Shown one piece after another: positions 5,978 through 22,800 of a stretch of DNA of 52,595 nucleotides (position 1 is the first letter of the stretch; each line of letters begins with the position of its first letter). The notes under the pieces are model-generated. The model was not told the DNA's origin. It was given only the letters and a program-made list of their open reading frames with translations, and searched no databases. A program made the position numbers and the translations under genes. This DNA comes from Craspedostauros australis (Eukaryota), in NCBI GenBank assembly GCA_030167865.1, contig JALAGF010003786.1, positions 1 to 52,595 on the forward strand, given 5' to 3'.

Positions 5978-8900
5978 CTACTTATTCACACACGACGCGG
6001 GGTTCTCCACGGGACAATCCGCAGATGCCGATGAGATCACGTAGACCTGTTGGCGTGGAATGCAGACCCGCCTCTGCACACACTCTGTGCATTGGTTGGC
6101 CCTGCAAGTGTCTCGCATCACGATCACGTCCGTGGTGGCGGCATCGGTGTTGGCCATGTCGCGACACGCGTTGGCGCCATCGCAGGCATCTTCCTGGATC
6201 TCCAAGCCGCCGCGAATTCTGCCAGTTGCGGAATGGGTGCCGGTGCAGGCGCGGCTTCCCTTGCAGGCATTGGGACCGATCTGGATGTGGCTTGTGATGG
6301 GGTTCAAGGCGAATCTGCCTTGCGTGGCACGCTTGCCGGTGCCTTGGCAGGCGCTGCGGCCGACGCAGGAGAATTCCCGGATGTGGAGCTTGCCGTAGAC
6401 GTTCACGCCGAGATCGGCGCAGCTATCGACGCTGGTGCAGGAACTTGGTCCGATGAGAATGGGGCCGGTGATGGCGTCCACGTGGGCTGCGGTGGTGGGC
6501 GTTCCCAGATTCTGGCAGGCATTTGGGCCCATACAGCTGGCGATGATGATGGCGTTCGATGCGATGTTGTCGCATGAGTTGGATCCGATGCAAGAGTTGC
6601 CGGACATGGTGGCGATGCGGTCAGGAAAGGAGCAGGCGCCGGAAGGGCAACACGTGGCGGCGCTGTTCGACGCGCAGGCGGATTCTACGAGCGGACCTGT
6701 GCCAGTGAAGAGCTCTTCGCCGGAGGTTGCTGCTGCGATCAACGAGGCGACTGCGGCGCTATCGTTCTTGACGAGATTGAATCGGGTTTGGGCATCTGCC
6801 TTCGACGCGAAGCCGAGTGCGACGCCGGTTCCCACGGCACATCCGAAGATGTTTCTGATCTTGTTGGCGTCATTGATGTCCATCGCTTCGATGGTCTCGA
6901 TGAAGCTGTTGCATGGATCCTCGGTCAAGTCACAGTACACGGTTGCTGGGATTGCTGCGGTGGCATACGTGGAGGGGTCGCCAGCTGTGGTCATGCATCC
7001 AACTTCCAGGTTCTTTCGGAAACGGGTTGGCGACAACGTAGGCGATGACGATGGGTATTCGGTCGGCGTCTCGGATGGCGCTGCGGAGTGCTTGAGGGTC
7101 GGTGCGCTCGTTGGGGCAGAAGTTGGCGCGGATGTTGGATTGAATGTCGGGTTGGCGGACGGCAGATTGGTCGGATTGTCGGTCGGCGATGACGAAGGCC
7201 TGTCCGTTGGAGCGAATGTCGGACTTTCGGTTGGCTGGTCGATCTTCTCCTCGCAGAAGGTGCCGATGCCGTACATGGCCGAAAGGCCTGCCATAGTCTT
7301 GGGACATGCTGACGCGGACGTGATCTTGTAAATCTGGGTGAACGGGTTGCAGATGGAGTTCTTCACGCACTCTGCGCATTCATACGCACCGCAAGTGTCT
7401 GCAGCAACGATGATGTCCGTGCGCATGACGTCGCTGGATCCCATCTCCTTGCATGCATTGTTGCCGTTGCAAGCACTGTGCTCGACGATGAAGCTTCCGC
7501 GGATCTTGACCGAGGACTGCGTGTGAGCGTGCTTGCAAGCATCCGTGCCTTTGCAGGCGTTCGGGCCGATCATGACATCAGAAGGGTCCTTGACGCTCCC
7601 GACCTGCGAACTGTGCGCGGCAACGTGCTTGCAGGCGTGTCTGCCCATGCAGGAACTGTCCTTGATGATAACGTCACCGTAAGAATATGCACCGACCCTT
7701 TGGCAGGCCTCGTCGGTAATGCACGCCGTGTGACCAACGAAGGTGATTCCTTTCATCTTGGGTGTCGCCGTGTCATCGTTGACGTTGATTGAAGAACAAG
7801 AACGAGTTCCGATGCAGCTGGAGTCGAGGACAAGGGGGCTATCACCCATGCTGGTGCAGGATTCTGTTCCCGTGCAGGCAAACGAAGCGATGGTCATGTA
7901 GCCATTTCCAGATGCCGTGGTGCAGGCACCCGCCGGGCAACAGTTCGATCCGCATGCCGACTCAATGCCGGCTCCAGAAAGTCCGGTGTACAACCGGATA
8001 CCACCTTCGTGCAGCTCCTTCAGATGGTCTGTGAGCACCTGGCTCGTCGCGAACTTGTTGAAGAGGGCGTTGGTGCCGTATCCGTTGCCGGAGTTAGCGC
8101 AAGCGAAGAACACCCGAAGGTCTTCATTCACCCGAAGCAACTCGAGCAATTCGACGCAGGAGTTCATGTTGATGTTGCAGTTGACGAGCATGGGCGCTGC
8201 ATTCGGCTCCGGAGTGCACCTCACTTGGACTGTCGATTCAATGTCGACTGGGGCCCTGGTTGGGGCGGATGTTGGATGGGCCGTTGGCCGAGATGTGGGC
8301 GTAGTCGTTGGGATGCTAGTTGGCGACGAGGTTGGACGAGAGGTCGGCGACGAAGTTGGAGTAGTCGTAGGCGCTCCGGTCGGTGTGCTTGTTGGCAGAT
8401 GCGTGGGTGCCGAGGTCGGGCTGCGCGTCGGTGACCTGGTTGGCGAACGAGTTGGAGTGCCTGTGGGAGCGCTCGTCGGTACGCTGGTTGGGAGGTGAGT
8501 TGGCCCGCTGGTGGGGGAAGCGGTTGGCGAATGCACCGGTGCACTCGTTGGAGCGCTGGTCGGTGCGCTGGTCGGGGTGCTGGTCGGGGTGCTGGTTGGA
8601 AAGCTGATGGGCGAACTCGACGGAGAGCGCGTTGGGGTGCTGGTCGGTGACGACGTCGGGGGTTTAGTCGGCGAGCGGGTCGGTTCGCTTGTGGCCGCAG
8701 CCTCATCGGGGTCTGTCAAGTCAAAGTCTTCGGTGTTGGATACTCCCGATATCGGATTGACCACCACGGTTGTTTGCGGGCCCGGGGTCGGGGCGCTGGT
8801 CGGGGCACTCGTGGGGGCACTCGTCGGAGATTTGGTTGGGAAGCTGGTTGGATTGCTTATCGGCGAGCTGGTGGGTGCGCTGGTTGGAAAGCTCGTTGGA

Positions 8901-9298
8901 TTGCTTATCGGCGAGCTGGTGGGTGCGCTGGTTGGAAAGCTCGTAGGGCTTTTCGTTGGCGTGTTTCGTGTCGCAGGCTGGAGGATGATTAGCTCTGGGC
9001 TGGTCCCTTGAGGCACTGGGTTTACCGTCGGGGCCGACGTGGGTGGCGAAGTTGCGTCGCTTTCTGGGCTGGCGGCGTCGTCCTTGACCTTCTTAGATCT
9101 TCCTTCCTTGCTCATCTTGGTTTCTGCCGAGCTCACGCCCTCGCCGCCCTCTCCCTTCAGCGTCCGGCTGTACTGAACCTGCACTTTGATTTCGTCGGTC
9201 CCCTGCTTTGCAGTCGCCTGAGTTTGAATGGTCGCACTGACGACTGCCATGTTGGCAATCAGGAAGGTGGCGAAAATTGCAGAGCGGAGTCTGAGCAT
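5978..9298 (-). CDS. Secreted mucin-like protein (1106 aa): signal peptide, RXL, two PTS-rich blocks alternating with two duplicated Cys-rich repeat domains
   Basis: Signal peptide MLRLRSAIFATFLIANMAVVSA; YSRTLK then K-rich stretch. PT[S/R]xPT tetrapeptide arrays at ~8250-9045 and ~7025-7245. Two homologous ~330-aa domains built of I-x-x-x-[AS]C-x-G-x-x-[AS]C repeats. Confidence 0.85.
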   Translation of the reverse strand: MLRLRSAIFATFLIANMAVVSATIQTQATAKQGTDEIKVQVQYSRTLKGEGGEGVSSAETKMSKEGRSKKVKDDAASPESDATSPPTSAPTVNPVPQGTSPELIILQPATRNTPTKSPTSFPTSAPTSSPISNPTSFPTSAPTSSPISNPTSFPTKSPTSAPTSAPTSAPTPGPQTTVVVNPISGVSNTEDFDLTDPDEAAATSEPTRSPTKPPTSSPTSTPTRSPSSSPISFPTSTPTSTPTSAPTSAPTSAPVHSPTASPTSGPTHLPTSVPTSAPTGTPTRSPTRSPTRSPTSAPTHLPTSTPTGAPTTTPTSSPTSRPTSSPTSIPTTTPTSRPTAHPTSAPTRAPVDIESTVQVRCTPEPNAAPMLVNCNINMNSCVELLELLRVNEDLRVFFACANSGNGYGTNALFNKFATSQVLTDHLKELHEGGIRLYTGLSGAGIESACGSNCCPAGACTTASGNGYMTIASFACTGTESCTSMGDSPLVLDSSCIGTRSCSSINVNDDTATPKMKGITFVGHTACITDEACQRVGAYSYGDVIIKDSSCMGRHACKHVAAHSSQVGSVKDPSDVMIGPNACKGTDACKHAHTQSSVKIRGSFIVEHSACNGNNACKEMGSSDVMRTDIIVAADTCGAYECAECVKNSICNPFTQIYKITSASACPKTMAGLSAMYGIGTFCEEKIDQPTESPTFAPTDRPSSSPTDNPTNLPSANPTFNPTSAPTSAPTSAPTLKHSAAPSETPTEYPSSSPTLSPTRFRKNLEVGCMTTAGDPSTYATAAIPATVYCDLTEDPCNSFIETIEAMDINDANKIRNIFGCAVGTGVALGFASKADAQTRFNLVKNDSAAVASLIAAATSGEELFTGTGPLVESACASNSAATCCPSGACSFPDRIATMSGNSCIGSNSCDNIASNAIIIASCMGPNACQNLGTPTTAAHVDAITGPILIGPSSCTSVDSCADLGVNVYGKLHIREFSCVGRSACQGTGKRATQGRFALNPITSHIQIGPNACKGSRACTGTHSATGRIRGGLEIQEDACDGANACRDMANTDAATTDVIVMRDTCRANQCTECVQRRVCIPRQQVYVISSASADCPVENPASCVNK
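8250..9045 (-). repeat. Coding 12-bp-period tandem repeat (PTS[A/S]-type mucin repeats)
   Basis: Long run of PTSAPTSSPTRSP-type units; also keeps antisense frames open (VGALVG ORFs). Confidence 0.85.
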
Positions 9299-10744
9299 GA
9301 TGATTCGTGAACTGTTTAGCTTGGTTGCTTGGTTGGATTTGGAGACACACTGATTTGGTTGGTGTGCGTGCCTATTCGAATGTGATACCCGTCGATTGTT
9401 CGATGTTGTATGTTCTTCGTCTTGATGGCGTTGAAGGCTGCGGTTGTCGAGCGATGGCGATTGGAATGAATAGTTCGATTGAGTATATTATCGTTGCTGT
9501 TGTTAGGAATTGTTGTGAGACGACATGAGATAAAGAAGTGTGAGAGATGCGCCTTGGGAGACACAGTGAGCATTGTACCAACTCGAATCATCTGCGGCAC
9601 GAAGAGGATGAAAGTAGACCCCGCGATGCGAGCAGGGATGACGATGGCGATGAACTTACCGGAGTTTGATGTTTATGCTCCTTGCTGTTGCTTTTGCGTT
9701 TGGGATGATGTTCGATCTTGTGAGGAGATGGAGGATCCATGCCAACCTGAGTGAACCTGGCCAAGTCGTCGCCTGATGGCCTTCCACAAGACTCCATGAG
9801 GTTGCTCACACAATCTTGTGCGCGGGGTCTTGTTGGCGTCTCGATTGCTCGCCATGTTGGATTCGTGTTGTGAACTCGGCGAATGATCGAGACGTGACTG
9901 ACGACACGATTTTGTCGAATGTTCGCCAATTCGATGCAGGAAACCTTAATTGATGACGTCTCATGGACAATAATGTTGTACTCTTCAGTGTCAAACAAGA
10001 ACGCAAACCAAACCTCGTGTTTGCGAGTGGATTGGATAGGACCGTGACGTCAGGCATTTCTCAGCGCTTGATAAATGCCATGTAAGTACGTTCTCTATTT
10101 TATGCTTCAGTTTACACGTTGTCTTTGAGACAGATATCGTTTTGTGGTACTCTTTATCAGATGGTACCATTGGTATCTGCGAAAGTGCGTACCAACAGTC
10201 ATGACGTGGAAAAACACGATCAAAACAACAACACTCTCCGCCAACCAAAACGGGAGAAATAGATTCCTCTTCGTTGCAGCCTTTCCCCAGTCGGCTCCAC
10301 GCTTTTTTCGCGCAAAGGGACGCAACCAGAAATGCGAATCGAAGATCATTGGCGCACACATCGGCACACATCACACACCAAGAATGAGAACAACCACCAG
10401 CCAATCCTCTCCAGCAAGCGTTCCGATGACGCTTGCGCTCGTCACAGCCAACCACCCAACCGAATCGAATTGAATCTGGGCAACTCTCCGCTCACTTTTC
10501 GTGCTTTCGTCTCTTTCGCTGGCCACGAAATAGTGTTCTGCGACATTTCGCTGCGTTACGATCAAGTTCCATCACAATCTGTTGCAAGTGGAGGACTCTG
10601 CTCTACCATGCGCATAGAGTAATCCACCGCAGTCCATCCGACACAACAACAGTAGCGATACAGACAGAGCAGAACACTCTTCTGTATGCACATATATCAT
10701 ACGTAGACACCGTTCATTAATCACGACGACACACAAGCCTCAGC

Positions 10745-11821
10745 ATGTTGGACGATCACGACTGTCGCACTGCCATTGCCCATTCTGCGGCACAGTGTGA
10801 GCTCAAGCATGGGCATTCACATCAGCATGAAACTGGGTACGACCACCCGCACCTGCGTGAGCATCATGCCTCCGACAAAACGAGTGTCCATGATGGTAAT
10901 GACATTGATGACGACGACAGCAGCAGCATTGCCAGCAATAACAGCTTCGATGCCGCTGCTGCGATGATGATGAGAGGCGCCTTCTTGCGCAAGCTGCGGG
11001 AGATAGAGCTGGAGGACGAGGCCGCTCGAGAGGCTGATGATACCGAGGCCACCTCATCGTCCATGTCCTCGTCATCGTCATCATCTCTAGCTGGCCACTG
11101 TGATGACACCTTGGACTACAAGTCCTACCTCGCCGATCAATCCTACTACGATGACTACAAGCATGTCAATTACAAATTCATCGATTACGGTGCGATCGTC
11201 GCATCCGATAAATCGCTCGTCATCGAGCAGGATCGAACCATCGGCAAGGGAGGATTTTGCTGGGATCCTGGTTTCATCCTCGGCCAACATTTCCTCTCCA
11301 TGCTGCCAACCATTAAGAAGAGCGACGGCAACAGAATCAACGGGATTTTGGAATTGGGAAGCGGACCGGGCGTCGCAGGACTCATGGCAGCACAGGCCTT
11401 GCCCGATGTTCCTGTCCATCTCACGGATCTGCCAGAAGTACTGCCCTTGCTGCAGCGCAACGTTGCGGCACTGCCCAATGCATCGGCGTCCACCTTGAGG
11501 TGGGGAACAACACCAGCAACATCGCAATCGTCGTTATCACCCAAATACGATGTCATTTTGGGCGGCGACGTCGTGGCGTCGATTTACAGCACATCTGCGC
11601 TCATTCAGACCTTGCGAGACATGTCGCATGCCGACACATGGATCGTCATCAGCGTGCGGGACCGATTGGCATCGACGATTGAGCCATTCGAAGCGGAGAT
11701 GCGGCGGCTCTTCCAGTATGTGGATCGTTGCGCACCGCAGAGCGATCTCAAGACACCCAACGTGTTCATCTTTGTGGCGCATGGCAAGAAGGAGGAAGGC
11801 GGAGATGCGCAGCAGCAATGA
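10745..11821 (+). CDS. Seven-beta-strand protein lysine methyltransferase (METTL21 / Methyltransf_16-like)
   Basis: IEQDRTIGKGGFCWDPG, motif I ILELGSGPGVAGL, LTDLPEVLPLLQRNV, LRWG and YDVILGGDVV; His- and acid-rich N-terminal extension. Exact start uncertain. Confidence 0.85.
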   Translation: MLDDHDCRTAIAHSAAQCELKHGHSHQHETGYDHPHLREHHASDKTSVHDGNDIDDDDSSSIASNNSFDAAAAMMMRGAFLRKLREIELEDEAAREADDTEATSSSMSSSSSSSLAGHCDDTLDYKSYLADQSYYDDYKHVNYKFIDYGAIVASDKSLVIEQDRTIGKGGFCWDPGFILGQHFLSMLPTIKKSDGNRINGILELGSGPGVAGLMAAQALPDVPVHLTDLPEVLPLLQRNVAALPNASASTLRWGTTPATSQSSLSPKYDVILGGDVVASIYSTSALIQTLRDMSHADTWIVISVRDRLASTIEPFEAEMRRLFQYVDRCAPQSDLKTPNVFIFVAHGKKEEGGDAQQQ

Positions 11822-12558
11822 AGAGAAGCAACCGGCATGGATTCGGGCGTGATGGGAGCACCGATGTTTGGCTGTTGCTGTGTGTGCTCTGCATAACAGA
11901 AGCATTTGAACTTTGACATCAACGATTTAGGTTTTACTACTTCTGTACATGGATTGAACTCTTTTCTGCTTGTGTTTGTCTTGTTGTTGTTGTTGTTGTT
12001 GTGGTGGTGGTGGTGATGCGTACCACAATGCATCAGTACGTATCCGTATGCGTGTCCTTTGCGGCCGACTGTCCCATTGGTCATCATGCCATCGTGGTTG
12101 CGCCGGTTGGTTTGCCTTGCGAGCTACGAATTCTTATTCTACAAAATCAGCAAGCAACGCCCCATGTGTGCACAAGCACACAGACACATACCGTGCACAC
12201 ATGCATGCGTTTGGTATTGGTCGGTAGGTAGATGCATGGCCGCACGATTCGGCCGGTGAGCTTGATTTCCTCATCGAGTTCTCGGTCTGACTCTGATGTG
12301 CAGGCCTTCCTTCCCTTCCTGACAAAAGGACCTTCACTTTTCTATTCCTCTCCTTTTGCTCCGCCTGTGATTTCTTGCCCCGTCTTGCCTTGCATTGCTT
12401 TGCATCGTGCCATGCCGTGCCGCGATACAATGCTGTGCATCGTGCTGCGCTGTGTGGTATTGTAGAACATGGCACTCGTACCATGCTCGTAGTAGCTCTA
12501 CGGCAGTACCATGCAAGGGCGATGCGATGCTGCAAGGCGCCCATCATCTCTCCTCTCC

Positions 12559-14457
12559 TTACTGTCTCTTGGCTCCCTTTGTGGTCTTGGATCCCTTGTG
12601 CGTTGGATCGTCGGCGTTATGCGTCGGTGATTGCATGCCCTTCAGCCCCTTCGCCATCTTGGGCGTCTTGGTGCTCTTCGTTGTTTTGGAGACCGAGGCT
12701 GTTTGTGCCGTTGTCGTCGTCTGCTTGATGGAGTCCTTGAACGCGGCGCGTCCAAACTCTTGGCCAGCAGCAAAGGCGCTGGCTGTTATGGCGATCGTCT
12801 CTTGGGTGTTCTTCTGCTCTTCCCCGGCAACGTCGAAGTCGTCTGCGAGCAGATCCTCCAGCTCGTCCAGGTCATCCAAGCCGAGACCCATGAAGACGGA
12901 GGCGGCTGTGTCCGTAGACATGGACATTGACATGGACATGGACATGGACATCGACATGGACATCATCACCGGTGGCATAGTCTGCTGCACAGGTGACAAA
13001 GTTGGCGCCGCTGAGCCAGTTGGTGCCGGCGTACCAGCGGTCGGTGCCTGGCTGTCGGTCTGCCCTGAGACTGGCATACGCGTGGGTGTTCCGCTTGGTG
13101 GTGTACTTGGCGATGCGCTTGGCATTTCGCTCGGCGTTGTACTTGGCGGCGCACTTGGCGATGCGCTTGGCGCTGCGCTGGGCGATGCACTTGGCGATGC
13201 ACTTGGTGGTGTGCTGGGCGACTGGCTTGGTGAGACCGATGGAGTGGCCGTTGGCAGGGAGGTTGGTGCGCTGGTGGGTTGGGACGTCGGCGGCAGGGTC
13301 GGTGCAGATGTTGGGACAGGGGCATCTGGACAGAAGTCTCCGTTGATTGGGCCCAGATTTTCCTACGTGGCCAGATAGAATGGAACGGAGCCGACATGGA
13401 AGGATTGAGTGCGTTCCCGGAACACGCGGTCGTTGCCGGGGTACGCAAAACGGCGTCATGGGACAGAGAGCGATGGCCATCGCGTTCGTAGTGCGGTTGG
13501 CAGTGCAGTTTGCAGTGTGAATGCGATGTGCGTCAGTTGTGTCATCCAAAGTTGGATGGTGTTGTGATTGGCAGCGCGGCGCGTGATGGCATGGCATCCG
13601 ACGGTCCCATAATCCAGCACGCAGTTTGGGCCATATGATGGAAACGGTGTCAGATATTGGGTTGTGCGTTGCACGTTGTCGCGGCACAGTGCATTCGACA
13701 AGGTTTGGCGATGCGAAACGGACGAGACAACAGAAAAAGAAACAAATGCAGTTTTGAGAGAATAGGTTGTTTTGGAATGAATCGATAAGACCAATCAATG
13801 ATCTTCAGACGCAACCATACACAAAGAATCACATTCACCGATCATCATCAGACTCTCAACCCAGGACAGCGCCACACGCACTATGCCATGCCATGCCATG
13901 CCATGCCATGCCATGTACAGCGTTTCGTTTGAACTTACGAAGACGACCCAACCGATGCTGTTTCCTGTTGTGATGACTGGGAATTGGTCGCACTCGTTGG
14001 TGAAAATGAACGAAAGGGTTTGGATGATGTTCTGATCGAACTGATTCAGACCGGTGATGTCCATCTGGATACCTCGCGGCAGCTGTAGCTGCCCGTTGAT
14101 GTTGTCGGAGTCATCAATGATGGAAATGTACGTGAACGTGTCTCCGTTCAGGAACAGTCTGTCATCCAGCAGCGTGGTCTTGACGGGACGCAAGTCTTGC
14201 CCGAGTTCTAGGATCGTGACATCACCGACGGAGATGGGAGTCAGATCGGTGGTTGTTTGCTGATTCTCTGGCGTAACGAAACAGAGGGAGGTGTCGATAC
14301 CGCGAAGATCAAGGTTGTCGATCGGAGGACATATCAGAGCAAAGTTGAACCGGAACTGGTACGTCCTGGCAGAGCAGGCGCACACATCATCCTGTGCGGC
14401 TGCTGGCGCCAGTAGGAGCGACAGCAGTATCGTCGAAAGGAATGCAGCGATGCTCAT
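12559..14457 (-). CDS. Secreted protein A (~440 aa): CAC-type N-terminal domain, PTS linker, (SM)n repeat and K-x-x periodic tail; 2 exons (14457-13939, 13362-12559)
   Basis: Signal peptide MSIAAFLSTILLSLLLAPAAA|QDDVCACS. Donor GTAAGT at 13938 after GWVVF; acceptor CGTAG at 13363; phase-0 join gives GWVVF-ENLGPINGDFCP, in frame with ORF 12559-13125. Confidence 0.8.
13882..13915. repeat. (ATGCC)n pentanucleotide microsatellite inside the intron of protein A
   Basis: atgccatgccatgccatgccatgccatgccatg read directly. Confidence 0.8.
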
Positions 14458-16502
14458 GATGTGATGGTGGCGTCTGGCTCGTCTCGTTGTCGGGTTGCGC
14501 TGTATGCGTTGTTTTGCGTCGAATGCACCCTCTTCGTCGTCGTCGTCGTCGTCGTTGTTGCCGTAGATCAACTCCACAGATTTCGGAGGAGCGTATGCAA
14601 AGCGGTGATGGGTGCTGATCTCGTGGTCGTGAGAGTACTGTTGTTGATGCCGCTGCTGTCGATGAAGCTGTTGTTGGCCGCGGTGGTGGTAGCTACGATG
14701 TTTCTGTTCGTTCTTCTCTCTCAAAGACGCGTCCAATTGCTAATCTTTCGTGTATTCAACTCCAAACAAACGGTGTTGATGAATTGGAAGCAGGGCGTGA
14801 GGTTTGTGAGCTGATGTATGCGCTATCGGTGTATGGACGGATCGTGAGTCTTTGCAATGAATTTTGTGTCTTCAGCAACATGCCCTCCAACAGCGTTTAT
14901 TCGCACAACAAGCAACTGGGCGGACAGAGACGGGAGAGAAGGAGGTACAGCAACCGAGATGTAGCTACAGGCAGTGGAAGAAGGAAGACGGAAGAGGCCA
15001 CATACATACCATGAGCACAGTGGCGTCGGCTTCTGATCCCGCTCCCTTGCGCATCCAAGGCAAACAACCTCCCTTTTTTGATGAAGCTGACCAAAAAGAT
15101 GAGGCCAACGAACAAAAATTTGCGTCGACAGGATTGAGTGTTCTATTTCTCATGTCTGACCGTTATCGAGCGCGTCGTGTTGGCGTAATTGTCAACTTTT
15201 TTGGTGACCGTCCAACTCTCTGCTCTGCCTGATGTCTCACACAAACCGATGAACAAATTGTGGCGGTGGTCTCCGTTCAGTTGCGTGATTTTGTCGTTCT
15301 TGGTTCGATCGCCATCGCAACCTTTCTCAAACCACGAACTCACGTCCGCGTTGGAGAGAGGTGTGGCCAACCTGCGGGGCAGGAGAGGACGAGGAGTACT
15401 CTTGCCATCGCTGATTGCCCCTTGGTGGACCATCGTTTGCACGTTACTGTTTTTGTTGATCATAAAGCCATCGTCTTCGATCAACAAAATCCGTGGCCAT
15501 CAACAAAAGAAGCCTCTATCGCTGAATGGTTGAGCGATTGAGAGCGGAATAGTAGGAAGACCACGTGAAGGATGAAGCTGCAGAATGGATCGACATCAGC
15601 AGGGCGCCAACATGGCTTCGGGGGACGAGCGCGGGTGCCGGTGCCGGTGCCTCTATCAGGCCTTCTTGTGGTAGGGCGAGGCGGATCATGCTTCAGGGTT
15701 CTATCTCAGGAGGGTGTGATGGAATGGAATGCCACACCCCAAGCTGGATGAGCACTCATGGGCACGTACGAGTGCAGTGGCAGTGATGACGATGGCGCAA
15801 GCGAAGATGCCAGCAACGCTGACCACGTTGGCCCTGGTCATGGACAAGACCGCGACGATGGTCGTCAAGACGATTCTTCGATCCTCATGCATGCGGTACG
15901 TTCATATGGCAAAGATGATCGACGATCAACCAGCATCGTCATCCTTCCAGACACCATCCACGCACGACGCACCATCTATCGTTTCATACTTGTTGCGACC
16001 GAGCCATTTGATCAGCTGATGAGACCTCATCATGTCCGTGGATCGAGGTACTGCCAGGCTCCACGGAAACCGCATATGCTCGGACCTGCAAGAAACAAAG
16101 CGCTGTTCATTGATTCAATGGTTCATTGGTTTACTTGTTAACTTTTGTTCTTTTGAGGATGTGAATACTATACAAACACGTGTGTATCTATGGCGTGCAG
16201 AATTGCCCGATGGAAGGGCATGTCCCGCTCTCTGGTGTGCTTCGGTGGAACTTGGCCGGCGTCAAGCCTGTGTACAATTTGGTCATGGAGATCTTCGACT
16301 GCGTGAAGAGCGTCGTCGTTGTCGGATCTCATCCTTGGCTTGCGGGTGCTGCATGGCTCATGCCCGCAAGTCTGAGCTGGATCGAGGAGGGGAAGCTCGA
16401 GATTTGGCGTGCTGCCACGACGATTGTGGCCGGATGGGCACGGTTTGACCGATGGGGCCATGCTCATGATATTGCGCGCTGTGCCCAAATCTATGCGTCA
16501 AC

Positions 16503-19500
16503 CTACTGCAGATCCTCCTGGATCGAAGCCATCGGTGTGCTCTGCATGTTGGCTGTGCTCTCGACCGTTTCTTCTCCCAAAAGCCTGTCTTTGCTTGACT
16601 TGCTGCCCTTGCCCTTGCCTTCGTCGGAATCAGAGTCAGAGCTATCGGATTTGCTGGACTTGCTGCCCTTGCCCTTGCCATCTTCGGAGGTAGTAGTCGG
16701 ACTGTCGTAGTATCCCTTGCCCTTGCCCTTTCCGTCCGCTGAGTCCGAATCAGAGCTGTCGGATTTGCTGGATTTGCTACCCTTACCCTTTCCGTCATCG
16801 GAGGTATCAGACTTATCGGACTTGCTCCCCTTGCCCTTTCCGTCGTTAGAGTCAGAGTCAGAGCTACCAGACTTGCTGGATTTGCTGCCCTTGCCCTTGG
16901 CGTCATCGGAGGTATCAGACTTGTCGGACTTGCTGGACTTGCTGCCCTTGCCCTTGCCATCTTCGGAGGTAGTAGTCGGACTGTCGTAGTATCCCTTGCC
17001 CTTGCCCTTTCCGTCCGCTGAGTCCGAATCAGAGCTGTCGGATTTGTCGGACTTGCTGGACTTGCTGCCCTTGCCCTTGCCGTCATCGGAGGTATCAGAC
17101 TTGCTGGATTTGCTGCCCTTGCCCTTGCCGTCTCCGGAAGTGTCAGATGTGGTGCCCTTGCCCTTGCCCTTGCCTTCATCAGAAGTGTCAGACTTGTCGG
17201 ACTTGCTGCCCTTGCCCTTGCCGTCATCGGAGGTATCAGACTTATCGGACTTGCTCCCCTTGCCCTTGCCATCATCAGAAGTGTCAGACTTGTCGGATTT
17301 GCTGGACTTGCCGCCCTTGCCCTTGCTGTCATCGGAAGTGTCGGACTTGCTGGATTTACTGCCCTTGCCCTTTCCGTCGCCGGAGGTATCAGACTTGCTG
17401 GATTTGCTGCCCTTGCCCTTCCCGTCTTGAGAGGTATCAGATGTAGTACCCTTTCCTTTGCCCTTGCCTTCATCGGAAGTGTCGGACTTGCTGGATTTGC
17501 TTCCCTTGCCCTTGCCGTCATCGGAGGTATCAGACTTGCTGGATTTGCCGCCCTTGCCTTTGCCGTCTTGAGAGGTATCAGATGTGGTACCCTTTCCTTT
17601 GCCCTTGCCTTCATCGGAAGTGTCGGACTTGCTGGACTTGCTGCCCTTGCCCTTGCCCTTGCCGTCATCGGAAGTGTCGGACTTGCTGGATTTGCTGCCC
17701 TTGCCCTTGCCCTTGCCGTCATCGGAGGTATCAGACTTGCTGGATTTGCTGCCCTTGCCCTTCCCGTCTTGAGAGGTATCAGATGTGGTACCCTTTCCTT
17801 TGCCCTTGCCTTCATCGGAAGTGTCGGACTTGCTGGATTTGCTGCCTTTGCCCTTGCCGTCATCGGAAGTGTCGGACTTGCTGGATTTACTGCCCTTGCC
17901 CTTGCCCTTGCCGTCATCGGAAGTGTCGGACTTGCTGGATTTGCTGCCCTTGCCCTTGCCTTTGCCATCATCGGAGGTGTCGGACTTGCTGGACTTGCTG
18001 CCCTTGCCCTTTCCATCTCCGGAGGTAGTAGTCGGGCTGTCGTAGTATCCCTTGCCCTTGCCCTTGCCGTCTCCGGAAGCGTCAGATGTGGTGCCCTTGC
18101 CCTTGCCCTTGCCTTCATCAGAAGTGTCAGACTTGTCAGACTTGCTGGATTTGCTGCCCTTGCCCTTGCCGTCATCGGAGGTATCAGACTTGTCGGACTT
18201 GCTGGACTTGCTGCCCTTGCCCTTGCCATCTCCGGAAGTATCAGATGTAGTGCCCTTGCCCTTGCCCTTGCCTTCATCAGAAGTGTCGGACTTGCTGGAT
18301 TTGCTGTCCTTGCCCTTGCCGTCTTCGGACTTGTCAGACTTGCTGGACTTGCTGCCCTTGCCATCTTCGGAGGCATCAGATGTGCTGCCCTTTCCTTTGC
18401 CTTTTCCATCGTCGGATGAGGTCGTCTTGTCCGACTTGCTGGACTTGCTGCCCTTGCCCTTGCCCTTGCCCTTGCCCTTGCCATCTTCGGATGTAGTCGT
18501 GCTTCCCTTGCCCTTGCCCTTGCCGCCACCACTCTTGTAGTAGTTACCGGCGTCGTAGTATTCGTACGAGTTCGGGTCGCCACGGGAAACCTTCCCGCGC
18601 GTGCCAACCGGCTTCGTGACAACGGTATCAGTTCCTTGGACGTCGCCGCCTCCGTTGCTTTGCTCTTGTGGTTCGTAGCTGTCCCTGTCAACAAGTGGCG
18701 TCTTTGGGATTCGGAGGTTCGTGGTGCGACCAGCTGAGTCTGCGGCTTCTCCATCCGTGACCTCCGTTGTCGTCTCGTCCTCTCTGCCGAACTCGTCCTG
18801 GAGGACGACGGGATCATCCATCTCGAGATCGACGCCGAGAGCCATAGACATCTGGCCGGAAGGATTTGACATCGATGGCGTCATGGATGGCTGGTAGGTA
18901 GGAGATGACGTGGCAGGCAACTTGGTTGGTCCTGAGGTCGGGGAGGTGGTTGGCGCAGCGGAGATGGTGGGAGGATTCGTTGCTGGGAGCCCTGGCGAGA
19001 GCGGGCAAAGAGATTTGCGTGCGTTGCCCACTTCTTCCTGCGAATGCAAATGATGACGGTTGTGAAGGCAGGAAATGCAACATAGCACGATAAGATGTCG
19101 ACGAAGAATAGCGAGAGGAATGAGTGAGTGAATGAGTGATTTAGTACCGTTCTTCATCAGATTTGGAAACCCGAGAAATCTGGGCCATGAAAGACCACAG
19201 CAACAAATCAAAACGAAGCATTGCGAGTTGATGCGGGGTGCGCGCAACCTCCAAGTTGAGACACTGCAATGCGACGCGGCGCGATCGCTCGCACAAGAAA
19301 CCCATCGTTGGCCGTACTTACGATTGTGATCCAGCCAACGCTGTCACCTGCGTTGAGGACTGGGAATGCTCCGCATTCGTTGTTGAAAACGATCGTGAGA
19401 AGATTGATGATGGATTCCTGCTCGTCGTTGTCTGCTAGGACGTCAATCTGAAGTGCACGGGGGACGTCGTTCATGTCCATGATCTGGTCCGAAAGAGCAG

Positions 19501-19858
19501 AGAGCGAAGAGTATTCAAATTCGAATCCATCCTCGAACTCTCCTTCGCGCACGTCCTTGACCAGCGGGCGGAAGTTCTGATCAAGCTCGATGATTTCGAT
19601 CTTCGTCCCGTTGACGGGCACCAAGTTCTGCACGTCATCATCGAGGTAGGGGTTGATGAAGCATCGGATTTCCTTGACGCCGTTGTTCATGGTGGCGTTG
19701 CTTGGTGGGCAGACCATGTCGAAGTCGATCTTGAATCTGTAGAAGCTTGGCGAGCAAGCGCAGATGTCTGTTCCGATTTCTTGCGCAGTCGAAAGCATCG
19801 GGGATGCAAGCAATGGCAGCATGATGGCTGCTGCCGAATGCATAACGCTCTTCATCAT
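16503..19858 (-). CDS. Secreted silaffin/cingulin-like protein B (~1023 aa): CAC-type N-terminal domain plus ~650-aa K/G/S/D repeat and C-terminal RXL; 2 exons (19858-19322, 19037-16503)
   Basis: Signal peptide MMKSVMHSAAAIMLPLLASPMLSTA|QEIGTDICACSP. Donor GTAAGT at 19321 after GWITI; acceptor TTCGCAG at 19038; phase-0 join GWITI-EEVGNARKSLCP is in frame with ORF 16503-19247. Repeat DDGKGKGSKSSKSDTS; ends KSSKDRLLGEE...DLQ. Confidence 0.85.
16590..18537 (-). repeat. Coding minisatellite array encoding GKGKG/SKSSKSD/YYDSPTTT units
   Basis: Highly repetitive cccttg / gacttgctgga units; about 24 KSSK motifs by hand count and three GKGYYDSPTTTS units (near 16704, 16983, 18039). Confidence 0.92.
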
Positions 19859-22800
19859 CAGTGTCGGTGCTCTTGTTGGTGTTGTAGTTGTTGCTGGCGG
19901 ATCAATGATCGTGAGTTGGCTGTGTGGTGGACGATAGCCGCTAACGAAGTTACCGCTGCTATTGCGATTGCTTTTGTTGTTGCTGCGGTGTAGCGAGCTC
20001 GATTGTGTGCTGCACCGATGGTTGAATGATTGTTGGAGATGTTTGGGATTTATGTCTCGAATACGTCTCTTGTTGTTGGTCTTGTGATTGCCGTTGTCCT
20101 CGGCGTCGTCATTGACCTTGCAATTAGATGTAACATAGGTTGCTATTGCCATGGATCAGCAACTACTGTGGCATGATGCTCCATCGGAACATCACATCAC
20201 CTTGCATCACTTCACTTCGTGTCACATGACATGGCATGACATGACATCGCGTGGGATCTTCTGCCTTTTGGCGTGGAAGCAACAATCTTTGTGTGGCGCA
20301 CGATTGTTCCGAGATCACACGACTTATCACCAAAAAATGTGACCAGGTTTTGGTGATCATCTGGCGCGCATTCATGCGAAGAGTTGAGGCAATTTGAATT
20401 AAGGCACTTTCAGTACGGACGTTATGTCGGACAGTCAATTTGTCCATGTTTGATTTCGCAATGAGGTTCTTCACATCGCTACAAGACTACTGCGACATGA
20501 GAAAATAAGAGACATGAATACAAACATTGTTCTATTCTTGCGAAAAACAACATGGAGGTTGACCATGCCGAAATTGAAACGTGCGAATCCCTTGTTGTTG
20601 TCTCACAAAACCCCAAAGCGCAGATCTTTTCTGCCAAAAACAGGCAGGACTGCGATCGTTTGTCGGAAACACATCCGCTGAGTTCGGGATACTTCTTGGA
20701 TGTCTCGTGGTTAGCTGCGGCCTGAACTTCAGCATTGCACGACTCCAAGCGGACAGATTGTAAGGACTTCTGATCGGTGGCCAAACGGTTGGAATTGAGT
20801 CGGACAGAGCCTCGTGCGCACAAAGCCTTCCGAAGCGGAGCAGGGAAGGGGTTGCCATCGGCATTTCTGTTTCCATTCGCGAGATCGACCACGAGCATCA
20901 TCATAATAGTAGTACGAGGACGCATTGGCATTATATGAGAGAGCATGTAGACTACACGTTGTAGCTCAAGTCGTGACTGGGCGCTGTGGCGTGTGGGCCT
21001 TGCAGAAATGCACCTTCTACCCGTACTCTTGGATGTGAGGGTTGAACGCTGGTCTTGGCGGAGCCTCCCAAGGGCAAGCATTGCCATTCGCAGCGCAATA
21101 CTCGTAGAGTGCTCGGCAAAGTCGTAGCAGGCAGTGCTCGACATGGGCGGAATGCTATTCGGTGTGGGCGATTTTGCGTTTGCCAATTCTGGATTCCAAA
21201 GACGAGACGACTTGTGTCAAGCAAAAAAGTTGGCAGGAAATGGTGAGACCAACGCGATAATCGAACACGGGCGATGCGGCCGGGCCTCCTCACGTCTACT
21301 GTGGGGGTAGAGAATCGGGTCAGAACGACAGAGAGGCGCCGAGATGCAGAGAGAGAGAGAGAGAGATCATAATTCCGCCATGCGCTGTCACGAGGCATGG
21401 TCCAGACTTGCGGAGAACTCGCACATTAGCCGCGCCTGAAGCTGAAGGAGGAGAGGAGCAGGATCACACCTTCGGCGAAGTTTGGTTTGGATTGCCGGAA
21501 GGATGGTTCTGTCATGGTGTTCCTGCATTCGTCATACTTGCAGCCTGTGGTCGTACAGGTAGATCAGGTTGATCCCTGGGGGCTGGTGCTGATTCCTGGA
21601 GGTCTTTTTGCTCCGTCTCCCTCCAGAAGTTGGCGAACGTTTCTTTTGTCTTCTTGGCTACAGACACGCACAGCGCAGATTCTCGTGGCAACTCGGACGC
21701 ACAATGGATGCTTGCGGGCACCAATTTGTGAGAATGGCCGGATAGTAGAATAGTATAAATCATCAGCAATTAGCTCGCAGAGCAATCATGTGTTGTGGCA
21801 TCCGCACAAGCGACAAGTAGACAATGGCGTTCGCAGCACAACATCACCGACCCTCTCTTGTGTGTTGCAATACCAATGCTACACAAACTCGTAGCATACT
21901 ACACATACTCATGGCGCATTCCATGTCGAAGGTGCGACGAAACGTCCAGAAAGTGCATCACACAGAAACAACACACATGACGAAAGGAGGCGATGTCCGG
22001 TCACGACCACTTTGGCCACAGAAAGTACACGACTTGCGTACGTGTGCGATCGCTGCTGTTCGTGGTTTCGTCTCCATGCGTGGGCAGAACGGTTGAACCA
22101 AGGACAAAAAGCGAAGGAAGAACTTCAATAGGAACTTCCGCGTTCGGAGAAAGACCCAGAACAAGACGACGGCAACCAGCGGTTCGCGCCAGCCGGTGCA
22201 CCGCTGCCGGCAACAATTGCGCTTCATTGTCGGCTTCTCGTGGGCCAGGGAGAGGAAAGTAGCACAGAACCGCAACGCCGTTTGATGTTGTGCTCTGTGT
22301 TCGCACGAGCTAGTTGTGTGAGTATGGGATCGCCATGACCGTAGCTGGAGTCCATAGTCCGCGGCACGAGTGCGAATAGCGTGGAGTCACCGAATAGGCT
22401 ACTATCCGGAGCGTCTCCACGAAAGCGATGTGATGGTTGTTGACACAATGAAGCCTCGCAACGACGATGTCGGAACCCGGTGCTGCTGCTGTGCCTGCTC
22501 CAGAGACGTTCGAATCCATAAGAAGCGCGCACATCTATGGATCCGTTCGCAAGTCTTCTCGCAATGCGAAATTCGCGAGGACTGTTTTGCCCAGGATGTT
22601 TCATGACATCGAATGCTTGAACTACGGTGTGTCACATTCGCCGGATTTGTGTCGTTCTGCTCTCGTGAAGTGTATCAGAGATCCAAGATAAGTATAATAG
22701 TGGATGGCGCGCCAAAGTCTCATCTCAATTCCGCGAAGCAATAGATGTTGAAAGAATGACATATTACCACCTCCATCCCACATTGAACTGCGAAGAAACT

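Follow-up and report, generated by a model that had tools for sequence, protein, structure and literature searches.

A tandem gene pair of the diatom Craspedostauros australis points to a large family of predicted secreted proteins with a conserved head domain and variable, often lysine-rich tails

Results

Two neighbouring genes share a head, an intron position and a layout

The 52,595-nucleotide (nt) contig JALAGF010003786.1 of Craspedostauros australis (assembly GCA_030167865.1), analysed over its whole length and called the window below, carries two neighbouring genes, A (12559-14457) and B (16503-19858), both on the minus strand and both composed of two exons. The gene models were read off the sequence and translated, with splice sites inferred from the sequence and from homologues. 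The predicted proteins, of about 440 (A) and about 1023 (B) amino acids (aa), are built on the same plan: a signal peptide and a cysteine-containing head, a stalk rich in proline, threonine and serine (PTS), a linker with Met and acidic residues, and a lysine-rich tail (Table 1). The original prediction had described the two genes as tandem paralogues, and their exon-1 products are indeed identical at 58 of 175 positions (33%, E 1e-35); the gene pair is confirmed as real, far beyond chance. Every motif listed at the time is present in both translations, as are the Met/acidic motifs and the tails. The head motifs shared by A and B are CACS-x3-Y-x-F-x2-[ND]F, CPP, CF, L-x-P, I[LI]EL-x-Q-x2-RP and PR-x2-Q-x-D, and further along F-x-NEC-x2-FPV, G-x-S-x-GW and GW-x2-[FI], after which exon 2 opens with E-x2-G-x6-CP. 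The exon-2 products are alike only in low-complexity stretches (best E 0.004), and a tblastn search of the window returned the A and B copies of the head and no third.

Both N-termini are hydrophobic, with 12-aa Kyte-Doolittle values of 2.47 (A) and 1.92 (B), and the predicted signal peptides end in a family-conserved A-Q right before the head. Hydropathy revealed no transmembrane-like segment in the exon-2 product of either gene, so no membrane anchor is seen. Two contigs from run X1, possibly RNA, match positions 16312-16726 without differences, running across gene B's stop codon and some 190 nt further; if they are RNA, they mark a 3' untranslated region of gene B without a further intron, and they confirm neither its splicing nor its expression. 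The 48-nt periodicity of the gene B repeat array (16590-18530) also gives rise to long spurious open reading frames (ORFs), both on the other strand and in alternative frames, such as 17022-18419 (+, 465 aa) and 16358-18880 (-, 840 aa).

Table 1 Parts of genes A and B in window coordinates, or in residues of the predicted protein
Feature	Position	Strand	Description
Gene A exon 1	14457-13939	(-)	173 aa; ATG at 14457 is the first in-frame ATG after a stop
Gene A signal peptide (predicted)	14392-14457	(-)	~residues 1-22; hydrophobic N-terminus
Gene A head, exon-1 part	residues 23-173		five conserved Cys: C26, C28, C43, C59, C156
Gene A intron	13938-13363	(-)	576 nt, GTAAGT...AG, phase 0, directly after GW-V-V-F
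Gene A exon 2	13362-12562	(-)	267 aa; stop 12561-12559
Gene A head end with sixth Cys	13327-13362	(-)	ENLGPINGDFCP; exon 2
Gene A PTS stalk	12967-13326	(-)	120 aa, 65.8% P+T+S
Gene A linker	12826-12966	(-)	(MS)8, then acidic stretch
Gene A K-periodic tail	12562-12738	(-)	two overlapping pentalysine clusters at 12640-12687
Gene B exon 1	19858-19322	(-)	179 aa, ATG 19858; predicted signal peptide (~residues 1-26) and predicted beta-sandwich head
Gene B intron	19321-19038	(-)	284 nt, GTAAGT...CAG, phase 0, after GW-I-T-I
Gene B exon 2	19037-16506	(-)	844 aa; stop 16505-16503
Gene B head end	19002-19037	(-)	EEVGNARKSLCP; exon 2
Gene B PTS stalk	18855-19001	(-)	49 aa, 63.3% P+T+S
Gene B linker	18789-18854	(-)	MSMAL...DEFGRED
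Gene B K/S/G/D repeat array	16590-18530	(-)	647 aa, 48-nt basic period
Gene B C-terminal end	after repeat array		short, non-repetitive, starts KDRLL

The head belongs to a large family of uncharacterized proteins

An exhaustive HMMER search with the exon-1 product of gene A against 1.84 billion cluster representatives at 50% identity gave 676 matches at E<=1e-3, 384 at E<=1e-10 and 8 at E<=1e-30; word-indexed searches that used single domains as queries were nearly empty, with no match in one and a single match in another. The modular family that the two genes had suggested, in which a conserved folded head is combined with variable Lys-rich tails, is supported, and it comprises the 676 representatives. 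All named members are diatom proteins labelled "hypothetical protein" or "uncharacterized protein", and come from Nitzschia inconspicua, Pseudo-nitzschia multiseries, P. pungens, Epithemia clementina, Attheya sp. and metagenome-assembled genomes (MAGs) of Bacillariaceae. They are mostly raphid pennates, many of them benthic, with the planktonic Pseudo-nitzschia and the centric Attheya also represented. Judging by these names the family is apparently diatom-specific; most matches are unlabelled metagenome or metatranscriptome proteins, and since these carry no organism label a restriction to diatoms cannot be stated. No paper describing the head domain was found in literature searches at the level of titles and abstracts, and the family appears, as had been supposed, to be previously undescribed.

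The head is predicted to be a beta-sandwich split by the intron

Across 32 full-length family members a sixth cysteine is invariant, and in genes A and B it is encoded in the x6-C-P segment at the start of exon 2 (ENLGPINGDFCP and EEVGNARKSLCP, respectively). The domain had been taken to be encoded by exon 1, and most of it is, but because the sixth invariant Cys sits in exon 2 the folded domain as a whole is not. Besides this residue, the invariant columns of the head are C26, C28, E84, N138 and P160 (gene A numbering), while P30, F39, C43, C59, P74, G105, Y110, S112, P127, Q131, N154, C156, G165, G169 and W170 are at least 90% conserved. All of the conserved columns are found in both A and B, and the domain can be recognized by the signature C-x-C...C...C...N-x-C...G-W-x2-[FILVM], followed by x6-13-C-P. 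The six conserved cysteines presumably form three disulfides.

Given the family alignment, AlphaFold2 modelled the gene A head as an all-beta structure of seven strands with a predicted local distance difference test score (pLDDT) of 89.8 and a predicted template modelling score (pTM) of 0.80. For a member in which the full domain was modelled (P0014; pLDDT 82.4), eight strands were obtained and the chain was ordered to about residue 195, through the sixth Cys. On these models, both confident, the head is predicted to be a beta-sandwich of eight strands and about 165 aa, split by the intron before its last strand and cysteine. The original prediction had called for a comparison of such a model with known structures; Foldseek found no match to it in the PDB at E<=1e-3. 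Its top match, an MD-1/ML-domain, was rejected as a relationship (template modelling score about 0.2). The best results of an exhaustive structural search were 7bi4_A (Z 5.7, root-mean-square deviation (rmsd) 3.4 Å, 96 aligned) and 4xoh_C (Z 6.1, rmsd 3.7 Å, 107 aligned), values that by the search's own calibration (Z <8) may reflect only a common arrangement, and C2 domains dominate the long list of near-tied beta-sandwich matches. The models thus suggest a C2-like beta-sandwich of unassigned affinity, with a fold that does not look enzyme-like. C2 domains, for example those of Mid1, PI3K-C2alpha and synaptotagmin, are likewise eight-stranded beta-sandwiches and make up most of the top structural matches; the head differs from them in being apparently secreted and Cys-bonded, and it has no sequence similarity to them (no PF00168 match).

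Profile searches led to no named family either. Pfam returned none at E<=1 for the four exon pieces of A and B, and at E<=0.01 the 32 full-length members yielded only PT repeats (in two of them) and one weak match to CCDC47. A PDB sequence-profile search with a 116-member profile had no match at E<=1, and the ESM Atlas no usable match for the gene A head or for a family member. Neither the Pfam nor the PDB profile searches, then, matched the head to a known enzymatic domain; such a match would have spoken against the idea of a new module. When two copies of the A head (residues 23-173) were modelled as a homodimer without the family alignment, the score reached 0.01 where the mark was 0.32, and the fold of the partner was itself uncertain; this speaks neither for nor against oligomerisation.

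The intron position is ancestral in the family

The introns of A and B had been regarded as identical. This is true of their position, their phase and their GTAAGT donor, but not of their lengths (576 versus 284 nt) or sequences: the best local alignment between them scores 22, and because this lies inside the range of shuffled controls (mean 18.9, sd 2.2, max 28) the two introns are without sequence similarity. Both are in phase 0 and directly follow G-W-x2-[FILVM], as in family members from other genomes. At the level of proteins, a survey of this junction in 254 non-redundant family members found that 132 continue with V-[SRCG] right after the motif, which is the product of GTA-AGT or GTG-AGT when a gene caller reads into the intron, and that 57 continue with x6-13-C-[PAVTS], as expected of spliced or intronless forms; among the remainder, 39 end at the motif (truncated), 12 are unclear and 14 lack it. 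At the level of DNA, 32 loci fetched with a 10-member sub-alignment were surveyed. Nine of them contain a total of 11 junctions with a GTAAGT (10) or GTGAGT (1) donor and an intron of 71-132 nt, followed by an in-frame exon that begins ...L-x-P-P-x4-C-P, and 19 junctions, mostly on short transcript-like contigs, are continuous. One further locus (L032) has the donor, with no acceptor found, and four (L011, L014, L030 and L031) gave no true motif match. Read-through forms are present in both major clades of the domain tree described below, and the phase-0 intron position of the head is ancestral in the family. At one genomic locus (L024) an intronless copy stands beside an intron-bearing one, a pairing suggestive of retro-copying or of loss of the intron in this family.

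The intron of gene A also contains a perfect pentanucleotide microsatellite (CATGG/ATGCC, 6.6 copies, 13883-13915), and less strict CATGG copies are found at 12410 and at 20225-20239, close to the ends of genes A and B. We do not claim (CATGG)n as a shared regulatory element: 19 matches in the window stand against 7.1 expected, and five of them are the single intron-A microsatellite.

Genes A and B appear to be old paralogues in a family prone to tandem clustering

The heads of A and B are each 40-47% identical to members from other sources and 33% identical to each other; 94 of the 254 family proteins outscore B against A, and 198 outscore A against B. In a FastTree phylogeny of 265 domains, which was midpoint-rooted and in which the branches of both A and B are long, A falls in a clade of 67 tips (support 0.85) and B in one of 170 tips (0.82), and their common ancestor spans 239 of the 265 tips. 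These comparisons indicate that A and B are anciently diverged paralogues. Similar clusters occur elsewhere, with three copies within 6.5 kb at one locus (L028), two copies each at two others (L027 and L024) and two Nitzschia inconspicua members with adjacent locus tags, and tandem clustering seems typical of the family. The clusters extend over L028:958-5890 (including one inverted copy), L027:365-4009 and L024:1099-3928, on contigs that are diatom-like.

A single head directly after the signal peptide is found in 250 of 256 family proteins. The other six (P0005, P0007, P0006, P0012, P0016 and P0100) carry two to four heads in series with PT linkers between them. Four tandem heads are present in P0005 (Epithemia clementina, 1225 aa) and in P0007 (705 aa); P0005 repeats the element ...PP-x4-C-P behind every one of its heads and has a G/K-rich tail at its C-terminus.

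Stalks, linkers and tails vary around recurrent elements

The PTS stalk behind the head is mucin-like and presumably O-glycosylated. Between stalk and tail, the linkers of the family repeatedly show an (M-S/D)n run and, after it, a stretch that is acidic or hydrophobic, with "EFG" in nine of the 40 tails of the census below. One subgroup instead has the linker E-W-x-D-I-Q-Y and the C-terminal sequence RRRLRVHRVD, which could be a processing or sorting signal. In its members (P0051, P0058, P0098, P0103, P0140, P0147, P0150, P0172, P0177 and P0178) the end, RRRLRV[HR][RP]..., is almost invariant and comes after a K-rich tail.

The tail of gene A contains 13 Lys in exact K-x-x-K periodicity, with eight K..K matches; the pentalysine pattern K..K..K.{1,2}K..K fits it twice, in overlapping positions. 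Serine makes up 26% of the gene B array, lysine 24%, glycine 21% and aspartate 16%, and the unmodified array has a net charge of +39; gene B has 160 Lys, 61 K..K, 32 KS.KS and 32 SKS.K. Silaffin-like proteins are reportedly delimited, in work of Scheffel and colleagues from 2011, by about 18% Ser and 10% Lys per 100-aa window. Gene B reaches both values (one window, for example, holds 33 S and 21 K), and gene A reaches both in no single window, its best window for K having 13 K with 7 S. A candidate RXL-type site, KDRLL, follows the repeats of B; A has none at its end, which reads KGAKRQ and then stop.

To place these tails in the family we took a census of 40 members, non-redundant and extending 80 aa or more beyond C-P, counting as K-rich any window with at least 8 K in 40 aa. 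A PTS-rich window is present in 28/40, an M-x repeat in 21/40, a K-rich window in 26/40, the pentalysine pattern in 16/40 and an RR[LF]-type ending in 18/40; PTS, MS and K features occur together in 9/40, and neither K-richness nor a pentalysine cluster in 14/40. That homologues would carry PTS and lysine features in their tails, as had been anticipated from the two genes, is borne out by these counts.

Discussion

Likeness to known diatom proteins

The layout of A and B is closest to that of the silaffins and silaffin-like proteins (SFLPs; TpSil1-4 and Cylindrotheca Sil1p), with which they have in common a signal peptide, Lys/Ser-rich regions with KXXK and pentalysine patterns, PT-rich regions, candidate basic R-x-L-type motifs and, in gene B, a zwitterionic K/S/D composition. 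Silaffins, however, are defined by composition and biochemistry rather than through any folded domain, whereas the present proteins have a predicted beta-sandwich head of about 165 aa, an intron and an (MS)n/acidic linker, all of them conserved. Frustulins and pleuralins are likewise secreted diatom wall proteins that combine Cys-containing domains with Pro-rich regions; judged by their descriptions they are set apart, as their ACR and PSCD domains are short and far richer in Cys than the head. With the soluble silicome proteins (SSPs) of Thalassiosira and Cyclotella, which are grouped by motif clusters (bioRxiv 10.1101/2021.09.18.460806), the family has a common motif vocabulary (KS.KS, SKS.K, SMSM and S/P/T-rich regions). 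This is a likeness of motifs, and the SSPs come from centrics whereas the named members here are mostly raphid pennates.

Two sources give these motifs a context. According to Skeffington et al. (bioRxiv 10.1101/2021.09.18.460806), which cites Poulsen et al. 2013 on this point, lysine clusters are the only experimentally defined silica-targeting elements, and a five-lysine 13-mer of TpSil3 together with a signal peptide suffices for silica targeting. The same text reports the pentalysine pattern in 29% of silica-extracted proteins versus 1.5% of background proteomes, a more than 20-fold enrichment of KS.KS, SKS.K and GKS.K, and an enrichment of SMSM in two motif clusters; it also states that not one silica-extracted protein was present in each of the three species and that a quarter of these proteins were without any known targeting sequence. 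Si-responsive silaffin-like proteins, according to Brembu et al. (PMC5501833), combine PT repeats with KXXK motifs and with RXL, their protease cleavage motif.

A tail that may anchor and a head that may be displayed

The reading we favour, to which we would give about an even chance, is that the family consists of proteins secreted to the cell wall or biosilica: the tail would bind and target silica, the stalk would act as a spacer and the head would be displayed as a ligand-binding domain. The protein would enter the secretory pathway through its endoplasmic reticulum (ER) signal peptide, and the lysine tail, formed in A by pentalysine clusters and in B by a zwitterionic K/S/D array, would interact with silica and direct the protein into or onto the biosilica. 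The extended stalk would keep the folded head at a distance from the mineral, and there the head might bind a partner, for example a polysaccharide, a cation or a protein of the matrix. Anchor and displayed part thus change places with respect to the original prediction, in which the head was the targeting or anchoring module that displays lysine arrays. That assignment is left unsupported: the defined silica-targeting elements are lysine clusters of the tail type, and the tail is the optional part, since both the K-rich window and the pentalysine cluster are missing from 14 of 40 members; the more economical reading is therefore the one with the roles reversed.

Several observations weigh against this reading. 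The association of the family with the frustule is suggested by motif resemblance, and the K-rich tails could equally bind anionic polysaccharides. A regular-expression scan found no strict pentalysine match in the tail of gene B, and the 1.5% background figure was obtained from three centric diatoms and not from this organism (bioRxiv 10.1101/2021.09.18.460806). With best Z values of 5.7-6.1, the structure of the head gives no functional clue. The tail counts are regular expressions on predicted proteins of mixed quality, of which a few of the 40 may be mis-called. Finally, because the 14/40 tails mentioned above lack K features, silica binding cannot be the family's universal role.

Three other explanations, which are not mutually exclusive, have to be weighed. 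The head could itself be a targeting, anchoring or oligomerising address that carries variable lysine arrays into the silica deposition vesicle (SDV) or the frustule. It is the sole part conserved across all members and sits as one domain directly behind the signal peptide in 250/256 proteins, while the tails vary or are absent (14/40 without K-richness), which fits a constant address with variable cargo; moreover, the quarter of silica-extracted proteins for which the preprint gives no known targeting sequence means that other modes of targeting must exist. We nevertheless consider this unlikely, as nothing connects the head with silica or the SDV, lysine clusters by themselves suffice in the one system tested, according to the same preprint, and the members with two to four tandem heads and PT linkers look like displayed binding modules and not like an address tag.

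A precursor model, in which head, stalk and acidic linker would escort the basic tail along the secretory pathway and neutralise its charge until proteolytic cleavage, in the conserved linker or at basic C-terminal sites of the R-x-L type, releases silaffin-like peptides, has a precedent in the layout of Cylindrotheca Sil1p, an acidic pro-region plus basic repeats. It would account for the conserved linear element, (MS)n and then acidic, that lies exactly between stalk and tail ("EFG" in 9/40) and for the basic RR[LF]-type ending, such as RRRLRVHRVD, of 18/40 tails; the repeats of gene B end in KDRLL, and RXL is described as a cleavage motif of silaffin-like proteins in PMC5501833. Gene A, however, ends without an RXL-type site, and a strongly conserved, presumably disulfide-bonded domain of about 165 aa exceeds the needs of a chaperoning pro-piece, and we hold this model to be rather improbable.

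The family may also have nothing to do with silica. Mucins and fungal adhesins, which the family resembles in architecture and not by homology, consist of a folded head, a long Ser/Thr/Pro stalk and a C-terminal attachment, which is a glycosylphosphatidylinositol (GPI) anchor or a transmembrane helix. The folded N-terminal head, Ser/Thr/Pro stalk and C-terminal element found here could belong to mucin-like glycoproteins of the extracellular matrix, of mucilage or of adhesion, with a presumed attachment element that is a lysine array and not a GPI anchor or transmembrane helix; the basic tails would bind anionic polysaccharides or surfaces and the heads would mediate adhesion or protein-protein contacts. 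The head-stalk layout with its PTS stalk, the multi-head members resembling beads on a string, the predominance of raphid and often benthic pennates among named members and the K-rich tail missing in 14/40 would all agree with this, but the tails use exactly the K motifs that bioRxiv 10.1101/2021.09.18.460806 reports as enriched in silica-extracted proteins, and members also occur in planktonic Pseudo-nitzschia and centric Attheya, which makes it distinctly doubtful.

A bolder proposal treats the head as a new biomineralisation module, specific to diatoms, by which lysine tails of the silaffin-like kind would be organised or docked in the SDV or on nascent silica, for instance through binding of a matrix component. 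We put this forward tentatively, with little expectation that it will prove correct; if true, the silaffin-like proteome of pennate diatoms, which otherwise cannot be aligned, would gain its first handle that is both widely conserved and structured. If instead the proteins serve in mucilage or adhesion, they would still constitute a large unannotated family of diatom surface proteins.

What is new here is an unnamed, confidently modelled head domain on an otherwise known silaffin-like or mucin-like layout of diatom surface proteins. Silica-associated proteins of diatoms are notoriously unalignable; the folded, conserved head is different, and it is joined to silaffin-like tails, with a conserved intron, across hundreds of sequence clusters. 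It could thus allow candidate cell-wall proteins to be found by homology throughout the pennate diatoms, and the succession of head, stalk, linker and tail offers a clean modular system for testing what targets proteins to biosilica. As a compact, apparently secreted scaffold the head could also be used for protein display on diatom silica, and the family as a whole could help explain how the cell-wall proteins of silica-shelled algae are built.

Neighbouring genes

Downstream of gene A, the next gene (5978-9298, minus strand, ATG 9298) encodes a protein of about 1106 aa with a hydrophobic N-terminus and 35% P+T+S. Its sequence includes DUF7640, long PT/PS repeats that match Pfam PT, and two Cys-rich modules; it has 52 Cys in these modules, where IGxxSC occurs three times and GxxAC ten times. 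Compared by motifs only, its vocabulary is like that of the "Cluster 2" silica-extracted proteins of Thalassiosira and Cyclotella, one of which was localised to the fultoportulae according to bioRxiv 10.1101/2021.09.18.460806. Between this gene and gene A lies an ORF (10721-11821, +) with a Methyltransf_16 (lysine methyltransferase) domain. We considered its product as a tail-modifying enzyme and dropped the idea: because it has no hydrophobic N-terminus (Kyte-Doolittle value 0.53) a lumenal role is unlikely, and it is probably cytosolic. Genes A and B and the gene at 5978-9298 are three genes for PTS-rich, predicted secreted proteins within 14 kb.

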